DNA of 64,000 bases from Minisyncoccota bacterium (lineage in GTDB: Bacteria > Patescibacteriota > Minisyncoccia > Phycocordibacterales > UBA9973), in NCBI GenBank assembly GCA_017991395.1, contig JAGOQQ010000002.1, positions 61,925 to 125,924 on the forward strand. The letters run 5' to 3'. Position numbers and translations under genes: made by a program. How positions within the stretch are numbered: position 1 is the first letter of the stretch; every line of letters starts with the position of its first letter. The notes beneath the pieces were generated by a model. The model was given only the letters and a program-made list of their open reading frames with translations, ran no database searches and was not told the origin of the DNA. Below, in pieces: positions 2,902 through 54,690 of this stretch.

Positions 2902-3030
2902 TTTGTCTATACCCCTTGCGGGGGAGGGCCGAAGCCATTTGCGCCGTAATTATAGATTATGTAGCATTGGAAGTCAACATCTTGTACCAACAAGCACCCT
3001 GTCACTAACGTGTCGTTCCTTCTCATCAAG

Positions 3031-3096
3031 GAGGGGAAGAAATACAACTAAAGTCTAAAGACTAACTACTAAAGACTTCCTTCTCCTTCCGCGTCT
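3031..3096. repeat. dispersed ~66 bp intergenic repeat (ggggaagaaatacaactaaagtctaaagactaactactaaagactt...ccgcgtc); second copy at 17063..17128
   Basis: Near-identical copy upstream of truB, seen by direct comparison. Confidence 0.7.
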
Positions 3097-3152
3097 GTCA
3101 GCGTTCAGGCTTTGCATAAGTGTTCCCTTATCCGCGTAAGTCTGCGATTACT

Positions 3153-3505: not shown

Positions 3506-3591
3506 CTAAAAGCTGAAAGTTTAAAGTTAAAAGCTTAAAGAAGAAGATTCTAAGCTAAAATTTTAAATCTGAAAGTTAAAAGTATGCTCGT
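3506..3591. repeat. tandem array of A-rich heptads (AAAGCTG/AAAGTTT/AAAGCTT...) between rpsN and rpsH; same family at 4039..4084, 7437..7476, 12714..12749 and 16675..16709
   Basis: aaagctgaaagtttaaagttaaaagcttaaagaagaag... recurs at five intergenic loci. Confidence 0.75.
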
Positions 3592-3631
3592 ATTTTTTAG
3601 ATTACTTATTACTTATTACTAATCACTAGTT

Positions 3632-4038: not shown

Positions 4039-4084
4039 AAAAGCTAAAAGCTGAAAGTCAAAAGCTGAAAGAAGAAATTCAAAG
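4039..4084. repeat. A-rich heptad array (aaagctaaaagctgaaagtcaaaagctgaaagaagaaa) between rpsH and rplF
   Basis: Same motif family as 3506..3591. Confidence 0.7.
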
Positions 4085-7399: not shown

Positions 7400-7478
7400 G
7401 GAGCAGTTTATAGCGAATAGGTTTTAGGGAATAGTGAAAAAGCTGAAAGCTAAAAGTTTAAAGTTGAAAGAAGAAATT

Positions 7479-7566: not shown

Positions 7567-7605
7567 TTAACCCTGTTCCCTTATCACTAATCCCTAATTA
7601 CTCGC

Positions 7606-8211: not shown

Positions 8212-8214
8212 ACG

Positions 8215-8262
8215 GTCGCGGACCTAACGCGGAAGGTCGCGGAACGGACGCGGAATTTTGCA
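8215..8262. repeat. GCGGA-type short tandem motif cluster (ggtcgcggacctaacgcggaaggtcgcggaacggacgcgga)
   Basis: Same motif family at 17126..17170, 24661..24700 and 25139..25170. Related CGTAGAACG clusters at 19855..19893, 45675..45712, 46088..46180 and 54547..54585. Confidence 0.65.
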
Positions 8263-12700: not shown

Positions 12701-12790
12701 CTAATAACCACCAAGCTCAAAGTTTAAAGCTGAAAGCTAAAAGAAGAAAAATATAGTATCTAGCTTTGCATTTAGTGAATCACTGAATTG

Positions 12791-12836
12791 AAGCCTCCCC
12801 TTGAGGGGAGGTGTCCGAAGGACGGAGGGGTAAGGA
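12791..12836. repeat. double-hairpin dispersed element (cctcccc-ttga-ggggagg then tccgaaggacgga then ggggtaag); copy at 54591..54634, degenerate copy at 2921..2953
   Basis: Near-identical palindromic sequence at three intergenic sites. Confidence 0.7.
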
Positions 12837-12889
12837 AACAGGTTATAGCAAATAGTTTATAGGTGATAAAGAAATACAAATAAATACAT

Positions 12890-12921: not shown

Positions 12922-12994
12922 GAATCCTGAATTTTCCTATTTCCTACTACCTACTTATTATTTCCTATAATCTTTATGTTAAACTATATCCATA

Positions 12995-16549: not shown

Positions 16550-16674
16550 CGTAAATTAAAAAATCGTGAGACACGATTACCTTGGCTTTCATAATAGCGA
16601 ATTTAAGCCTGAAAGTCAAATCGATTGGGCAGGCCATAGGGGGGGGGATAGTTTATAGGGGATAGGCGAGGGAG

Positions 16675-16709
16675 CTCAAAGCTAAAAGTTTAAAGCTGAA
16701 AGAAGAAAA
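16675..16709. repeat. A-rich heptad array (gctcaaagctaaaagtttaaagctgaaagaagaaaaa)
   Basis: Same family as 3506..3591. Confidence 0.7.
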
Positions 16710-17062
16710 ATGCGGTCTTTGGTGGATTTTCCCCTCCTGCCAAGGAGGTGAGAAAGTGTGGGACACTTTCGCAAGACCTTTTGAGATAGATTTCGAACTC
16801 GTGAAGAAATATATCCAAAAGGTATACAGCTTCTGTAAGAAGTGCCTGAAAGGCGGGGTGGTTCCTCTCCTAGACAGGTGAGCTTGGGAGAGGGACCCAA
16901 GCGCAAGTACTTTTGAGATTTTATTGGAGGTACTTCGAACAATAAAATCCAAAAGTTAAACAGTTTCTGTAAGAAAAGGACGACACGAAGTGACTGGTGA
17001 GGTTGTTTGAATACTCTATACATATACACCACCCCGTCGCTTCGCGCCACCCCTCCTTGAAA

Positions 17063-17128
17063 AGTAGGGGAAGAAATACAACTAAATTCTAAAGACTAAC
17101 TACTAAAGACTTTCTTCTCCTTCTGCGT
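17063..17128. repeat. second copy of the ~66 bp dispersed repeat seen at 3031..3096
   Basis: Direct comparison shows a few mismatches only. Confidence 0.7.
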
Positions 17129-17190
17129 CCGTTCCGCGTAGGTCTGCGTTTAGTCCGCGACTTCCGCGATTTGTGTGTTAGATTTGAGAT

Positions 17191-19826: not shown

Positions 19827-19921
19827 AAAGTTTTAGCGGATAGGGAATAGTGACGTTGTACGTAGAACGCAAAGCGTAGAACGTACATACGAAAAAATGC
19901 GCACTCGATATCACTAGTCTA

Positions 19922-22923: not shown

Positions 22924-22997
22924 CCGTCCTTAGCTCAGTTGGTTAGAGCACAGAGCTTATACCTCTGGGGTCCATGGTTCGAATCCATGAGGACGGA
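22924..22997 (+). tRNA. tRNA-Ile with anticodon UAU (reads AUA)
   Basis: Manual cloverleaf: acceptor CCGTCCT/AGGACGG, D GCTC/GAGC, anticodon stem CAGAG/CTCTG with loop CTTATAC (anticodon TAT), T-arm CATGG-TTCGAAT-CCATG, discriminator A. No encoded CCA. Confidence 0.75.
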
Positions 22998-23046
22998 CAA
23001 ACATAAGAAGCGACACCGTCAGGCGTCGCTTTTTATGTTTGTCCGT
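22984..23046 (+). repeat. ~62 bp direct repeat (tRNA-Ile 3' end plus terminator hairpin); second copy at 23200..23262
   Basis: atccatgaggacggacaaacataagaagcgacaccgtcaggcgtcgctttttatgtttgtccg appears twice about 216 bp apart. Confidence 0.8.
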
Positions 23047-23279
23047 CCTCAGTGAACAAACTGCTTTGTTCACGTATGGATTCGAAAGGCGCAGGCATGT
23101 TTTTCAAAGTTCACACTTTGAAAAATGCCGAGCCCAGGTCAGGAGTACTTTGTAGAATTTGAGCGTCGCGAAAAATTATACTTAGTAACTCGGGACCGAT
23201 TCCATGAGGACGGACAAACATAAGAAGCGACACCGTCAGGCGTCGCTTTTTATGTTTGTCCGATAAGTATGAAATCAAC

Positions 23280-23832: not shown

Positions 23833-26487
23833 CTATTCAAAATGAAATGTGCTAAATTTTGAAACTTTTTCTTTGAGTATCGGGTATGAATCAAGCTCAC
23901 TATCAGATTCAACCATTTTGAGTGCTTCATTTCGGGCAGCTTCAACCATTTTGAGATTTTTGATTGCCTCCATTCCAAGGTCTGTGATACCCCACTGTTT
24001 TCCTCCTCCAAGTTCTCCCGCGCCACGAAGTTGCAAATCAAGCTCTGAAAGTTCAAATCCATTTTTCGCTGTTTTAAGTGCCTTAAGTCTGTCGAGAGTT
24101 TTTTGAGTTTTTGCATCTGCAAAAAGATAACAATACGCTTGATGATTTCCACGGATAACACGACCCCGAAGCTGGTGAAGCTGTGCGAGTCCAAATCTCT
24201 CCGCACCTTCGATGATTATCATTGTGGCGTTTGGCACATTCACTCCCACTTCGACCACCGAAGTTGCGACAAGAATATCGATTTCGTGGCGAGAAAAGGA
24301 TTGCATGATCTCTTCCTTTTTCTCTTTGGTCATTTTTGAATGAAGTATTCCAATTTTTGAACCTTTGAATACTTCCTTTGAAAGTCTCTCTGCTTCACTT
24401 GTGACTGATTTCACTTGCAGTGCCATTTCTTGATCCGGGTCTGGGTCGTTGATTCGCGGACAAATCACATAAAGCTGACGACCGGATGCCATTTCCTTTT
24501 TTATAGCGTCATAGGTTTTTTGTCTACCGTCCACACCAATAATTTCTGTGATGATTGGTTTTCGACCACTTGGCATTTGGTCGATAATACTCACGTCCAA
24601 ATCTCCGTAGATTGTAAGTGCGAGAGTACGAGGAATAGGCGTTGCGGTCATGGACAACAGGTGGGGCATGATCGCGGACTGACGCGGACTTGACGCGGAA
24701 CGAGCTTGATTTACATTTCGTGCAAGCTGGTATACTACTCTTTCAACATCGAGTGTTGATTTACCGAAATTGACTAAAAGTCCGAGTTCAAAATCTGATC
24801 CTTTGAGATATGACCACAGTTGTTTCTTTTCCTGGGTTCCGAGAAACGGAAGTGTTTTTAGCTCTACAACAATTTTATTTTCTACAACAAAGTCCGGAAT
24901 GTATGTACCCACTTTTTTACCTCTAAATTTAATATCAATTCTATGTTCTTGAGAAAATTGTATATTATTTTTTTTCAATTCTATCGCCAAAGCTTTTTGA
25001 TAAATAATTTCTTTATGCCCAAGCCCAAGTTCTTGTTTTACGTTGAATAGAGATCTTCTGATTGCATACGTAAGGTCGCGGAATAGCAATGAGTCATCGA
25101 CTGTTTTATCAAAATGAGTATTCTCGAGGTCGGATTTTTTCCGCGTGAGTTCTGCGCTGTCCGCGTCAAACTTGCCCCTAGCAAGGAGGAAGCGTTGGTT
25201 GGTTCCAAATCTATGTTGTTCATCGATTATCACAAGTGCGAGATGTTTAAACTTCACGCTTTTTTGGATGAGTGTGTGCGTTCCAATTACAATCGGGATA
25301 TCACCAGAGGCGACCCATTTCATGAGCTGAGGTTTTGAAACTGTTGTCCACGAATCTGGGTTGACCTTTGAGGGGAATTTTCTGCACCCACTTCCTGTCA
25401 TGAGTGCGATGGATATCCCTGTGTGCCTGAAATACGTGATGAAGTTTTCAAAGAGTTGTGTTGCGAGAATTTCTGTCGGTGCCATATATGCCACTTGAAG
25501 TGAACCAAATTTTTGATCATTTGGTCGACTCGAAATAATTGAGTGAGACACCACTGCGGCAACTGCAGTCTTTCCACTACCCACATCTCCTTCAAGGAGT
25601 CGTGCCATTGGATGAGGTTTTTTTAAATCAGAAAGTATTGTGTTGATTGAATCCATCTGACCTTTAGTCGGAGTGAAGGGAAATCTGCTGATGAATGACT
25701 CAGTGTCTTTTTTTGATGTGGTGACAGTGAATGCATTGTTCTCACGAAATATTTTTTTATCTTGTTGTTTTTTGAGTTGGATAACAAACACTTCTTCAAA
25801 TGCAAAACGCTTTCGTGCGACTTCAGCGTGTTCTTTTTTCTTTGGAGTATGAACCCAGACATATGCTGTTGAAAGAGAAGGAAGGTTGTACTTTTTGAGA
25901 ATCGACTCCGGAATGTATTCTTCGAGTGTGTCGAGTAATCCAGATTTAAAAATTCTATCTATTGCATGATAGAGCCATTTTGAGGTGACAAACTTTGTTT
26001 CGGGATAAATTGGATATCCAAAAACTTCATGCGAATTTCCCTCATCGCTAAATAATGATGAATGCGAATCAATAGGCAGGTCGGGTGTTTTTTCAAATTC
26101 AGGGTTGGTCAGATAAAGTCCCGTACTTCCTTCGGCGACTTTTCCTGTGATTTTTACGGTATCACCATCACGAAGCATTTTTGCAATGTATGCTTGGTTG
26201 AACCACATCACCTTCATTTTTCCAGAAAGATCTTCGATCCACGCTTCAGCCATTGGAATTTTTGTACGAAAAGACTTCTTTGTTTTTGGTGCACTGATGG
26301 TGCCGTAGATTGTGATACTTTCTCCTTTTACCGCATCAGCGATTGACTTTATGGTAGAGAGGTCGCTGTATCGTGTGGGAAAATAGCGAAGTATATCTTC
26401 AATGGTCTGAAGTTTGATTCGGGTTAGCGCTTTTTTTTGTTGTTCATCAATTCGAAAATGTTTCTCGATTGTATCGGTTAGATTCAT
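23833..26487 (-). CDS. recG: ATP-dependent DNA helicase RecG carrying an in-frame ~180-aa insertion between helicase motifs II and III
   Basis: Wedge/N-terminal domain, Walker A LEGDVGSGKTAVA, motif II IIDEQHRFG, motif III MTATPIPRTL and C-terminal helicase motifs (VATSVVEVGVNVPNATMIII, QLRGRVIRG). Motifs II and III are separated by ~185 aa, versus the ~25 aa between these motifs in E. coli RecG as recalled from memory. Confidence 0.85.
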   Translation of the reverse strand: MNLTDTIEKHFRIDEQQKKALTRIKLQTIEDILRYFPTRYSDLSTIKSIADAVKGESITIYGTISAPKTKKSFRTKIPMAEAWIEDLSGKMKVMWFNQAYIAKMLRDGDTVKITGKVAEGSTGLYLTNPEFEKTPDLPIDSHSSLFSDEGNSHEVFGYPIYPETKFVTSKWLYHAIDRIFKSGLLDTLEEYIPESILKKYNLPSLSTAYVWVHTPKKKEHAEVARKRFAFEEVFVIQLKKQQDKKIFRENNAFTVTTSKKDTESFISRFPFTPTKGQMDSINTILSDLKKPHPMARLLEGDVGSGKTAVAAVVSHSIISSRPNDQKFGSLQVAYMAPTEILATQLFENFITYFRHTGISIALMTGSGCRKFPSKVNPDSWTTVSKPQLMKWVASGDIPIVIGTHTLIQKSVKFKHLALVIIDEQHRFGTNQRFLLARGKFDADSAELTRKKSDLENTHFDKTVDDSLLFRDLTYAIRRSLFNVKQELGLGHKEIIYQKALAIELKKNNIQFSQEHRIDIKFRGKKVGTYIPDFVVENKIVVELKTLPFLGTQEKKQLWSYLKGSDFELGLLVNFGKSTLDVERVVYQLARNVNQARSASSPRQSAIMPHLLSMTATPIPRTLALTIYGDLDVSIIDQMPSGRKPIITEIIGVDGRQKTYDAIKKEMASGRQLYVICPRINDPDPDQEMALQVKSVTSEAERLSKEVFKGSKIGILHSKMTKEKKEEIMQSFSRHEIDILVATSVVEVGVNVPNATMIIIEGAERFGLAQLHQLRGRVIRGNHQAYCYLFADAKTQKTLDRLKALKTAKNGFELSELDLQLRGAGELGGGKQWGITDLGMEAIKNLKMVEAARNEALKMVESDSELDSYPILKEKVSKFSTFHFE
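24650..25200 (-). other. in-frame GxxExxY-family (PD-(D/E)xK-like, 23S-rRNA-IVS-type) domain inserted inside recG, flanked by GCGGA-repeat clusters
   Basis: Insert sequence ...LGLGHKEIIYQKALAIELKKNNIQFSQEHRIDIKFRGKKVGTYIPDFVVENKIVVELKTLPFLGTQEKKQLWSYLKGSDFELGLLVNFGKSTLDVERVV contains the literal G-H-K-E-I-I-Y (GxxExxY) and a PDF...ELK PD-(D/E)xK core. Nucleotide flanks: gcggactgacgcggacttgacgcggaac at 24661-24700, and its partial inverted counterpart at 25139-25170. Confidence 0.6.
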
Positions 26488-34299: not shown

Positions 34300-34386
34300 G
34301 GAGGATTGGATGAGTGGTTTAAATCAACGGTTTACTAAACCGTCGTTCCTTAATTGGAACCGTGAGTTCGAATCTCACATCCTCCG
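34300..34386 (+). tRNA. class-II (Ser-like, G73) tRNA with anticodon loop UUACUAA, i.e. an apparent ACU anticodon; possibly aberrant or a pseudo-tRNA
   Basis: Acceptor GGAGGAT/ATCCTCC (7 bp). 3-bp D stem GAT/ATC. Anticodon stem ACGGT/ACCGT. Variable-arm hairpin GTTCC-ttaatt-GGAAC. T-arm GTGAG-TTCGAAT-CTCAC. Discriminator G. Confidence 0.55.
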
Positions 34387-34388
34387 CA

Positions 34389-44403: not shown

Positions 44404-44438
44404 CTACTTACTACTAATTACTATCTACTAACTAACAT

Positions 44439-45644
44439 ATGCAATTCAACTACAAAGCCATTACGGCAACGGGTGAAAAAAAAGAAGGTGTGGTGGAGGC
44501 GGTCAACAAAGACCTCGCTATTTCTGCGCTCCAGCGTCGCGGACTTGTGGTTGCAGCTATCAAGTCTACAGAAGAAGCAAAAAGTTTTCTTGAAATAAGT
44601 CTTTTTGAATCTGTTCCAATGAAAGATGTGGTGATGCTTTCTCGTCAGATTTCAACATTGTTTGAAGCCCAAGTTTCTGCCCTCAAAGCGTTTTCTTTGC
44701 TCGGTGGAAATTCTGAGAACAAACTTCTCCAAAGAACACTCAACCAAATAGTAGACGACATCCAAGCAGGATTTTCAATTTCCGGTGCACTTGCAAAACA
44801 TCCAAAAGTTTTTTCTGAATTTTATGTAAACATGGTTAAAGCCGGAGAAGAATCAGGAAAGCTCGTGCAAACATTTACCTATTTGGCGGATTATCTTGAT
44901 CGACAATACGAACTTACTTCAAAGACTCGTAATGCACTCATCTATCCAGCCTTCGTGATTTTGGTTTTTATCACAGTGATGATACTTATGTTTGTGGTGG
45001 TAATTCCAAAACTCTCACAAATTATTGTTGAATCTGGACAGGAAATTCCTGTGTATACAAAAGTAGTAATCGGTATTTCAAATTTCTTTGTAAATTATGG
45101 ACTGTTTCTATTGATTGGTGTTGTGGCATTTGGAGTATATGTGTGGTGGTTTGCCCAATCAGATCGCGGAAGAAAATACCTTGACCAAGTGAAGCTTTCA
45201 ATTCCATTCGCAGGAAATCTTTTCACAAAGCTTTATCTTTCTCGAATCTCAGACAACATGGAAACAATGCTCACCTCAGGTATTCCAATTGTGCGCTCAA
45301 TCGAAATCACTGCTCAAGTCGTGGGCAATCGAGTGTATCGAGATATTATGCTCATGTCAGCTGAAAAAGTGAAATCTGGTTCGTCACTCGCCGATTCTGT
45401 CGATAGACATGTTGAAATTCCATCTATTATGGTGCAAATGATAAAAGTGGGAGAAGAAACTGGATCTGTGGGAATGGTACTCAAAACTCTTGGAAAATTT
45501 TACAAACGAGAAGTTGATGACGCAGTAGATACACTCGTCGGACTCATCGAACCATTTATGATCGTGATGCTTGGAGTGGGAGTGGGAATTCTCCTTACGT
45601 CTGTGTTGGTGCCGATTTACAATATTGCTTCTGGAATTTCTTAA
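44439..45644 (+). CDS. pilC: type IV pilus platform protein PilC (GspF family)
   Basis: About 400 aa with two GspF-like repeats and three TM segments. Confidence 0.85.
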   Translation: MQFNYKAITATGEKKEGVVEAVNKDLAISALQRRGLVVAAIKSTEEAKSFLEISLFESVPMKDVVMLSRQISTLFEAQVSALKAFSLLGGNSENKLLQRTLNQIVDDIQAGFSISGALAKHPKVFSEFYVNMVKAGEESGKLVQTFTYLADYLDRQYELTSKTRNALIYPAFVILVFITVMILMFVVVIPKLSQIIVESGQEIPVYTKVVIGISNFFVNYGLFLLIGVVAFGVYVWWFAQSDRGRKYLDQVKLSIPFAGNLFTKLYLSRISDNMETMLTSGIPIVRSIEITAQVVGNRVYRDIMLMSAEKVKSGSSLADSVDRHVEIPSIMVQMIKVGEETGSVGMVLKTLGKFYKREVDDAVDTLVGLIEPFMIVMLGVGVGILLTSVLVPIYNIASGIS

Positions 45645-45674
45645 AAAGCGAAGCTTTTTAAGAAATTCCAGATA

Positions 45675-45712
45675 GAACGTGATACCTAAAACGTAGAACG
45701 TTCAATTCATAT
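45675..45712. repeat. CGTAGAACG-type repeat cluster (left flank of the four-helix-bundle cassette)
   Basis: agaacgtgatacctaaaacgtagaacgttc. Inverted counterpart at 46088..46180. Confidence 0.65.
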
Positions 45713-45713
45713 A

Positions 45714-46067
45714 ATGCAAAACAGTTTTCAAGAAGAACTTAAAAATCTTGCAGATGAATATGCACACAGTGTGTATTCTGTTACAAAAAAATTTCCGAAA
45801 GATGAACAGTTCGGGATAACTTCACAATTGCGTCGCTCCTCACTGTCCGTACCTTTAAATATTGTTGAAGGCTATGCACGAAATAGTAAAAATACATTTC
45901 GTAATTTTTTGGAAATTGCATTTGGATCTTTAAAGGAATCATTATATTTGATTGATTTTTCACAAAAAGAAAATTATATATCAGAGGAAAAATCATTAGA
46001 ATTGAAAAAAATAGGTGATAGAATATCTGGAATGCTTTGGGGAACAATACAAAAATTGAAAGAATAA
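45714..46067 (+). CDS. 'four helix bundle' protein (TIGR02436-like, 23S-rRNA-intervening-sequence-type protein)
   Basis: SVYSVTKKFPKDEQFGITSQLRRSSLSVPLNIVEGYARNSKNTFRNFLEIAFGSLKESLYLIDFS matches the conserved four-helix-bundle (IVS) protein pattern. Confidence 0.75.
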   Translation: MQNSFQEELKNLADEYAHSVYSVTKKFPKDEQFGITSQLRRSSLSVPLNIVEGYARNSKNTFRNFLEIAFGSLKESLYLIDFSQKENYISEEKSLELKKIGDRISGMLWGTIQKLKE

Positions 46068-46087
46068 AGCATTCCCAATTAGGATTT

Positions 46088-46180
46088 CCACGTTCTGCGT
46101 TCTACAATCCACGTAATATATTCGAATCAATCTTGCATAGAACGTTCTGCGCTCTACGTTCCGCGTTCTACCCGTAGGCG
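46088..46180. repeat. CGTTCTACG-type repeat cluster (right flank, inverted relative to 45675..45712)
   Basis: ccacgttctgcgttctac...agaacgttctgcgctctacgttccgcgttctacc. Confidence 0.65.
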
Positions 46181-46304
46181 GTTTTCCACAGTTCCTTATT
46201 TTGCAATATAAAAATGAATATGTGTTAGAATATAAGCATTACAAGGTCGTGTCTTTATTCATAAAGGCAAAGAAGTAATTTAGATTAATAAATAATTAAT
46301 TAGT

Positions 46305-54546: not shown

Positions 54547-54590
54547 ACGTGAAGCGTAGAACGTAGAACGCAGAACGTGCCTCGCTGCAT

Positions 54591-54634
54591 TCAAGCCTCC
54601 CCTAGAGGGGAGGTGCCCGAAGGGCGGAGGGGTA
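54591..54634. repeat. copy of the double-hairpin element (cctcccc-taga-ggggagg, gcccgaagggc) preceded by a CGTAGAACG cluster at 54547..54585
   Basis: Direct comparison with 12791..12836. Confidence 0.7.
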
Positions 54635-54690
54635 AAAAATATTTTCTGTATCTTCTACTCACTACTTACTAATCACTAATTACTACCCAA

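Follow-up and report, generated by a model that had tools for sequence, protein, structure and literature searches.

A gene from the family of 23S rRNA intervening-sequence proteins between inverted heptamer arrays in a type IV pilus operon of a Minisyncoccota bacterium

Introduction

What is a gene of the protein family known from 23S rRNA intervening sequences (IVSs) doing in a spacer of a type IV pilus operon? The question is raised by a stretch of 64,000 nucleotides from a Minisyncoccota bacterium (GenBank assembly GCA_017991395.1, contig JAGOQQ010000002.1, positions 61,925 to 125,924 of the forward strand), hereafter called the window, in which an open reading frame (ORF) of this family lies between pilC and the pilin genes with short repeats on either side. 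The initial annotation, made from the letters alone, had taken the ORF and its repeats for a mobile cassette. No rRNA was found in the 64-kb window, and the cassette is hence outside any rRNA gene. We consider that positions 45645-46180 are probably an IVS-type passenger cassette outside rRNA, with a functional four-helix-bundle gene enclosed by inverted 7-nt arrays in the spacer 3' of pilC.

Two puzzles that have stood for decades bear on this locus, namely the nature and protein role of ORF-bearing 23S rRNA IVSs and the excess of heptanucleotide repeats in the intergenic DNA of Nostoc and Xanthomonas. The PF05635 family occurs in rRNA insertions of bacteria of the Candidate Phyla Radiation (CPR), and its protein is still termed functionally uncharacterised (PMC11270868). 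In the Coxiella IVS, GACAGAT heptamers stand before the start codon of S23p, their copy number varies among strains, and the first repeat is where RNase III cleaves (PMC4990558). The initial annotation had called the element essentially uncharacterised, which went too far, since heptamers beside such an ORF had already been noted there. The excess of heptameric repeats is strongest in Xanthomonas and Nostoc, and X. campestris carries about 70 convergent heptamer pairs, to which no function was assigned (PMC4692102).

Results

The passenger gene and its arms

Loci that were fetched for comparison are cited by number (L001 and so on). The features at the locus in the window are as follows.

44439-45644, plus strand: pilC (T2SSF family), the upstream host gene; PF00482 and PF28597 were matched on the identical gene of L001
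45630-45672, plus strand: perfect 20-bp palindrome with a 3-nt loop, 100% complementary, -27 kcal/mol
45672-45709, plus strand: left arm of ATAGAAC ... GTAGAAC units, which stops 4 nt 5' of the start codon
45714-46067, plus strand: 117-aa four-helix-bundle gene (TIGR02436 / PF05635), assigned by family models, the match to 2GSC and dN/dS
46088-46105, plus strand: right arm, proximal cluster GTTCTGC GTTCTAC, with units at 46092-46105
46138-46172, plus strand: right arm, distal cluster GTTCTGC GCTCTAC GTTCCGC GTTCTAC after TAGAAC
46181-46304, plus strand: conserved pilin leader with promoter-like TTGCAA (46201-46206) and TGnTAGAAT (46223-46231), forming the right border of the variable segment
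46305-46739, plus strand: major pilin gene, the downstream host gene, with an N-terminal methylation motif (PF07963)

Membership of the ORF at 45714-46067 in the four-helix-bundle family was confirmed by profile searches, with 105.6 bits against the TIGR02436 hidden Markov model (cutoff 24) and 107.6 bits against PF05635 (cutoff 33.8). The 117-aa protein matched 2GSC, the solved pentameric four-helix bundle of X. campestris XCC0516 (E = 1.3e-13), and structure 2RLD (E = 6.5e-4), and by homology it would adopt the same four-helix-bundle fold. In comparison with the orthologues of L182 and L186, the ratio of nonsynonymous to synonymous substitution rates (dN/dS) was 0.14-0.18 for the cassette ORF and 0.03-0.05 for pilC. 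This purifying selection on the ORF argues that the protein is in use. The Avd models stayed under cutoff for the protein (NF033474, 21.5 bits with a cutoff of 80; PF22296, 24.2 bits with a cutoff of 40), phrog_3206 (Avd) gave a weak match (E = 2.7e-05), and a PADLOC defence search of the cassette protein returned zero matches. No reverse transcriptase and no template or variable repeats adjoin the cassette, whose immediate neighbours are pilC and the pilin genes, and heptamer arrays were the sole repeats found in a local survey.

The 7-nt unit of the window arrays occurs as GTAGAAC, GCAGAAC or GCGGAAC. On the left flank, units are seen at 45672-45678 (ATAGAAC) and 45693-45699 (GTAGAAC). On the right flank, the proximal cluster is the partner of the left arm in the minimum-free-energy fold, and the distal cluster consists of four reverse-complement heptamers in tandem at 46144-46171, with a period of 7. 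The best inverted pair joins 45673-45709 to 46134-46170 over 37 nt, with 76% complementarity. The arms paired at -32.7 kcal/mol, as compared to -15.8 ± 3.1 kcal/mol when the right flank was shuffled, and none of 500 shuffles equalled the observed value (z of about -5.5). The bracketing of the ORF by inverted motif clusters, read from the letters in the initial annotation, was borne out. The motif CGTAGAACG was present in five copies in the window against 0.27 expected (0 of 100 shuffles reached five), and the loose pattern GNRGAACG was weakly enriched (19 versus 10.3 expected). The repeat signal resides in the clusters and not in the loose pattern.

The left arm of the palindrome at 45630-45672 is formed by the last 13 coding bases and the stop codon of pilC. 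The palindrome is kept in L182 and L186, which have the cassette, and is missing from L011 and L012, which do not. It looks like the product of templated fold-back synthesis.

Layout of PF05635 genes in general

Flanks were surveyed across the family with 80 further members fetched from metagenomes, and each flank score was the best local alignment of the upstream flank with the reverse complement of the downstream flank. The median inverted-repeat score was 30.5 for 90 PF05635 genes and 17 for 911 control ORFs from the same loci. A score of at least 30 was reached by 48 of the 90 genes (53%) versus 3.2% of the control ORFs, and inverted flanks were thus about 17 times commoner at PF05635 genes. 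Among 52 non-redundant cases the best arm period was 7 in 32 and 8 in 9, and the arms held up to 14 units a side (L166). Left arms were C-poor, and the start codon usually followed them by a few tens of bases at most; right arms started at the stop codon or just past it. The upstream neighbour was co-oriented and at a short distance in 50 of 59 loci.

One of the 80 sampled loci lay in 23S rRNA (L131), where the arms (AATTGAA)4 and (TCAATTA)4 were found outside the GC-rich basal stem. The family gave 10 Nostoc plasmid hits, and in Nostoc punctiforme pNPUN01 the gene stands between (GGGTGTG)n and (CCTACAC)n. In the Picosynechococcus sp. PCC 7003 plasmid NZ_CP016476.1 (L197, 686-1042), a cassette with GGAGATA and TATCTCC arms is located between cas10/cmr2 and cmr3. 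An ORF between inverted arrays of 7-nt, sometimes 8-nt, units that are specific to the lineage is the general layout of the PF05635 family, and this common layout spans a true 23S rRNA IVS, CPR operon spacers and cyanobacterial plasmids.

Stop triplets in all three frames were found in 20 of 41 periodic left arms, as compared to 12.8 ± 2.4 expected under a null model that preserves periodicity and composition (4 of 1000 permutations reached 20). Left arms with any stop were not enriched (34 versus 32.9 expected). These counts are only suggestive of heptamer stops that block read-through in every frame.

On a CPR contig (L190, 1478-3846, and L191), three PF05635 genes, each with short-unit flanks of its own, alternate with PrgI-like, TraC-like and VirB4-like conjugation or type IV secretion genes. 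In L192 (1715-2860), two PF05635-type ORFs stand in tandem with a tRNA gene in between; the 8-mers ATAAGTCT/ATAGGACT flank the first (197 aa, weakly matching), and CATGAAG heptamers flank the second.

The pilus locus and its cassette-free counterparts

Judged by its PilC relatives, the window belongs to the Patescibacteria (Paceibacterota/Nomurabacteria-like). The gene order in the window is pilB, a response regulator gene, pilT, pilC, the cassette, three pilin genes and the prepilin peptidase gene. The nearest species without a cassette (L011 and L012) have PilC proteins 94% and 92% identical to that of the window. In both, the pilC stop codon is followed by a terminator hairpin spacer of 43 bp or 84 bp and then by the pilin leader, which carries a promoter-like TTGCAA / TGnTAAAAT pair. 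The leader can be aligned in the window, L182, L186, L011 and L012, and because that of L011 and L012 matches the window from 46181, the variable segment is set at 45645-46180, 536 bp in the place of the terminator. The comparison with the empty sites showed a spacer that was replaced rather than cleanly inserted into. A 10-nt direct repeat, GGwTTTCCAC, at 46082 and 46180 is perhaps due to chance. Judged from these alignments, the cassette is a spacer resident. It apparently closes the pilC transcription unit and stands upstream of the putative pilin promoter in the leader. Between pilC and the ORF no promoter-like or terminator-like site was detected, in a weak scan that missed the conserved pilin promoter-like site too.

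Inheritance and strain polymorphism

An identical cassette protein was found on 13 contigs from several samples, every time in the slot between pilC and the pilin genes, and the orthologues of L182 (90% identical protein) and L186 (82%) sit in the same slot. PilC identities split these loci into two groups, the window with L182 and L186 (94-97%) and L011 with L012 (97%). The groupings and the shared slot therefore indicate one gain or loss with vertical descent afterwards, and within the clade of the window the cassette is vertically inherited.

The arrays gain and lose whole units between strains: exactly one heptamer (46163-46169) is missing from the distal right cluster in L007, and the whole distal right cluster is missing in L186. 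Orthologous pilus loci, the comparison that the initial annotation had recommended, showed not only the absence of the cassette from L011 and L012 but also an additional one. In L003 and L005, the identical first cassette is accompanied by a second one in the pilT-pilC spacer, with a PF05635 gene whose protein is about 40% identical to the first. Its arms differ too, the left one being built of TAGTAGA/TAGGAAG units and the right one of CTACTAC/CTACTAA units. At this place the window has a lone array:

44404-44438, plus strand: pilT-pilC spacer with a CTACTAA-type array, the same as the right arm of the second cassette of L003 and L005

The distant L017 and L032 have proteins in the pilT-pilC slot that are 61-64% identical to that of the L003 gene, and their PilC identity is 67%; this divergence would suit an old residence with recurrent loss. 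Another cassette was found 3' of pilC in L084. The units of the cassettes that adjoin pilC are GTAGAAC, TAGTAGN, TAGTAAA (L032) and GCCACTA, all of them in inverted period-7 arrays, and the L032 arms are a perfect 32-nt inverted repeat. No periodic array was present upstream of pilC in 77 of 79 orthologous loci. The 84-nt pilT-pilC spacer of L024 (3917-4000) has no ORF and holds TAGGGAC/TAGTGGC units and, after them, a perfect (CTAGAAC)x7 array directly 5' of the pilC start codon; arrays can therefore occur without a passenger gene.

Relocation of the gene with its arms

A relative of the cassette protein with 62% identity (P0004, L188) is encoded in an unrelated sugar-nucleotide operon, between dTDP-sugar isomerase and nucleotidyltransferase genes. 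About 27 CGTAGAA/CATAGAA units, the unit of the window, stand in tandem 5' of its gene. Because this relative has the window's unit in an unrelated operon, gene and arms relocate together. Relatives with 56-58% identity, in other contexts, have the related units C-R-T-R-R-A-A. Among period-7 cassettes, the distance between units drops as protein identity rises (permutation p = 0.0035), with a mean cyclic unit distance of 1.6 for pairs at least 60% identical and about 3.1 otherwise; some of the close pairs in this test share a locus and are not independent evidence of movement. Of the mobility that the initial annotation had claimed, the presence or absence of the cassette among relatives and the same unit elsewhere in L188 speak for it, and the same-slot orthologues at 90% and 82% identity show vertical inheritance within the window's clade.

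Other arrays and elements in the window

A strict period-7 detector found four arrays in the window and was too stringent, and the spacers were read directly instead. The following arrays were recorded.

about 3085-3150: CG-type array
8212-8255, plus strand: ORF-less CGCGGAA-type array in the adk-map spacer
17120-17170, minus strand: ORF-less CGCGGAA-type array upstream of truB
19855-19893, plus strand: GTAGAAC array without an ORF, located between smpB and the 5' end of the transfer-messenger RNA (tmRNA) gene
54547-54578, plus strand: ORF-less GTAGAAC/GCAGAAC array in the gatC-gatA spacer

The solo copies of the motif at 19855-19893 and 54547-54585, listed in the initial annotation, are real, and further CG-type arrays were found as well. 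On contigs with an identical GatC, ACGCGGA/ACGCAGA units replace the GTAGAAC units of the window in the gatC-gatA spacer. The GTAGAAC and GCGGAAC unit types are related, since they are interchanged at this one position beside an identical GatC. The solo arrays were considered as sites that are occupied in sister strains, and this found no support: the available strain contigs were all identical at smpB-tmRNA, and the gatC-gatA variants were ORF-less.

RecG (23833-26487, minus strand) contains an in-frame GxxExxY / PD-(D/E)XK domain at residues 471-583, between the helicase lobes, with the insert at about 24670-25165. The insert gave 117.9 bits against TIGR04256 and also matched PF13366. On either side of the domain stand inverted GACGCGGA-type short-unit arrays, which are themselves translated. 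Free-standing GxxExxY genes numbered zero among about 190 fetched loci. The initial annotation had both IVS protein families inserting into protein-coding loci together with a related repeat family. The first part holds for RecG, where the insertion is in frame, and not for the cassette, which is in an intergenic spacer and replaces a terminator; the second is reasonable for the CG-rich units, but what is shared is a layout and not one repeat.

Further repeats were observed. G-free, C/T/A-rich heptamer arrays of CTACTAA/CTACTTA are located at 3601-3628, 7577-7605, 12930-12970, 44404-44437, 54655-54688 and 19827-19850 (minus strand). Five genes (rpsH, adk, an unknown gene, pilC and gatA) have such an array directly 5' of the start codon, and another precedes the 5' end of the tmRNA. 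The complementary arrays (TAGGGAATAGTGA type) are at 7406-7440, 12845-12880, 16640-16680 and 19835-19855, and some of these form inverted pairs with no enclosed ORF. A third array type, with AAAGCTG/AAAGTTT heptamers ending in AAAGAAGAAA, was found at 3510-3545, 4039-4080, 7438-7478 and 12713-12750, in the spacers of ribosomal-protein and neighbouring genes. A GC-rich element of about 40 nt, cctcccctagaggggaggtgcccgaagggcggaggggta, has three copies (about 20-60, 12795-12835 and 54600-54637), and two spacer repeats of about 100 nt are near-identical (3030-3110 and 17051-17150); both the element and these repeats are possibly structured small RNAs or mobile mini-elements.

At 22985-23045 and 23205-23262, around about 160 bp, the 3' end of tRNA-Ile together with a terminator hairpin forms a direct repeat of about 60 nt, and the pair is possibly an attachment-site scar that an integrated element left behind. 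ARAGORN identified tRNA-Ile with anticodon UAU at 22924-22998 and tRNA-Ser with anticodon ACU at 34300-34387. Both anticodons are unusual in bacteria.

Discussion

The findings at pilC favour an IVS-type passenger cassette that lives in a messenger RNA spacer. Such a cassette would have no promoter of its own and would be transcribed from the pilB-pilT-pilC host unit, because no promoter-like site was seen between pilC and the ORF and because family members are co-oriented with their upstream neighbours. Pairing of the arms would then yield a long stem with the ORF secluded in its loop, and the stem could be an RNase III substrate as in rRNA IVSs. Processing of this kind would free the host RNA of the insert and leave the insert harmless in the host transcript. 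Selection on the arms at the RNA level was tested through transition mismatches, of which 108 would be G.U pairs in sense and 104 in antisense, with no bias; the test gave an RNA stem no support. Because there is no sense excess of G.U pairs and the antisense pairing is the stronger, the complementarity of the arms appears to be kept at the DNA level, possibly by copying of one arm (template switching or gene conversion), and not by selection for RNA wobble pairs.

Several points weigh against this reading. About 40% of family members are without a strong inverted repeat, and in two of five named plasmid examples the arrays are direct and not inverted. The window arms themselves are among the weaker of the family (inverted-repeat score 29, 76% complementary), and those of L186 retain only the short proximal pairing. 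As antisense RNA the window arms are more stable (-44.0 versus -32.7 kcal/mol in sense), and neither this nor the lack of a sense-strand G.U excess is what selection on the sense RNA predicts. A clean target-site duplication was not found at the cassette borders, the cassette is vertical within the clade, so that the window copy need not have moved recently, and stem formation and RNase III processing in this organism are proposed by analogy.

The arrays could instead be binding sites, in DNA or RNA, of the encoded protein, and cassette and protein would then be an autoregulated or self-recognising unit for which the ORF-less genomic arrays are further targets of such proteins. We regard this as rather unlikely. 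Its units co-vary with the protein lineage (including window versus L188), but physical linkage alone predicts as much. The complementarity of the arms is symmetric, as a feature of duplex DNA would be. Avd, the weakly matching relative from diversity-generating retroelements, is a pentamer that binds nucleic acid and reverse transcriptase. Start-codon heptamer arrays alter expression in Nostoc, where the partner is reportedly unidentified (bioRxiv 10.1101/2022.06.06.494920), and the heptamer-rich Xanthomonas and Nostoc (PMC4692102) both supply members of the family (2GSC and the 10 plasmid hits). Against binding sites stand the at least four array types that share the 64-kb window with one such gene, and the high variability of the units beside conserved core motifs in the protein.

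A non-autonomous transposon with cargo, similar to a miniature inverted-repeat transposable element (MITE), whose arrays are the terminal repeats or hairpins for a transposase encoded elsewhere, is improbable in our judgement. Inverted termini, presence or absence among relatives, the gene with its CGTAGAA unit at different loci of different genomes, and ORF-less inverted pairs and solo arrays in other spacers would all suit such an element, and the perfect palindrome at the left border hints that DNA was synthesised on a template upon insertion. However, the arms differ between cassettes even in one genome lineage (GTAGAAC versus TAGTAGA), which is a misfit to one sequence-specific transposase, and cassettes that share a slot have diverged about as far as the host gene (61-64% for the protein versus 67% for PilC). 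Neither a clear target-site duplication nor a nearby transposase was found, and the 64-kb window has one PF05635 gene and zero near-identical copies of it.

It is just as improbable that a small resident gene lies in a fast-evolving spacer among unrelated, slippage-prone microsatellites whose inversion is incidental: heptameric repeats are over-represented in bacterial intergenic DNA generally (PMC4692102), the window spacers are rich in heptamer arrays beside ordinary genes, ORF-less arrays exist and the cassette is vertical in its clade, but this is disfavoured by the roughly 17-fold enrichment of inverted flanks over same-locus control ORFs, by the 77 of 79 orthologous pilT-pilC spacers without a periodic stretch, by the recurrence of the layout in a true rRNA IVS (L131) and by L188, where the unit of the window accompanies its protein lineage in an unrelated operon.

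In the open-access literature and bioRxiv, we found no report that links heptamer repeats with PF05635 genes or that gives inverted arrays as the usual setting of these genes outside rRNA. An IVS-type cassette in an mRNA spacer is apparently undescribed, as is the family-wide layout, which we consider the more interesting result. The data link the two puzzles named above, since the IVS-protein gene is typically found within inverted heptamer arrays and rarely in rRNA (1 of 80 loci). We suggest, tentatively and with some doubt, that PF05635 proteins and 7-8 nt arrays are one widespread system, in which the protein is the missing partner of the heptamers, the cassette colonises transcribed spacers and the rRNA IVS is a special case. 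If this were true, the protein would recognise or maintain its own lineage-specific arrays, and its targets would include operons, cas loci and conjugation operons. The locus concretely pairs a small protein with a cognate repeat and offers presence/absence pairs in near-identical strains. "23S rRNA IVP" was listed among CRISPR-linked domains in a large-scale screen (PMC10910872), and a gene wedged between cas10 and cmr3 may explain this listing as an annotation artefact.

Comparison with known systems

The diversity-generating retroelement protein Avd is related to the cassette protein through its four-helix-bundle fold family, by weak, sub-cutoff matches. Unlike Avd genes, the cassette has pilC and a pilin gene as neighbours and no adjacent reverse transcriptase or template/variable repeats.

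MITEs, repetitive extragenic palindromic (REP) sequences and bacterial interspersed mosaic elements (BIMEs) are, like the cassette, short elements with inverted termini that are found in spacers and are polymorphic among strains, and ORF-less versions are present in the window genome. They have unique terminal repeats, whereas the arms of the cassette are tandem arrays of short units that differ between copies. The cassette also differs from them in its conserved gene and in that no clear target duplication was seen.

Heptameric repeats of the short tandemly repeated repetitive (STRR) type, as known from cyanobacteria, from Xanthomonas (GGGAATC) and from the start-codon arrays of Nostoc and Beggiatoa, share with the cassette arrays their intergenic tandem 7-nt units, a length that varies among close relatives and frequent convergent (inverted) pairs. 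The STRR-type repeats have one genome-wide unit, whereas the cassette arrays bracket a gene, co-vary with it and have lineage-specific units.

The 23S rRNA IVSs of Leptospira, Coxiella, Xanthomonas and CPR bacteria encode the same protein family as the cassette. In both, terminal inverted repeats enclose the ORF and form a stem, which for the cassette is predicted, and both are sporadic among relatives (the window, L182 and L186 have the cassette, and L011 and L012 lack it). The IVSs lie inside the rRNA gene, whereas the cassette is in the pilC-pilin spacer, where it replaces a terminator. The Coxiella IVS ORF is reported to be decaying and is probably untranslated, in contrast to the cassette ORF, which is under purifying selection. 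In the Coxiella IVS, as in the cassette, heptamers stand directly upstream of the ORF in a number that varies among strains (PMC4990558).

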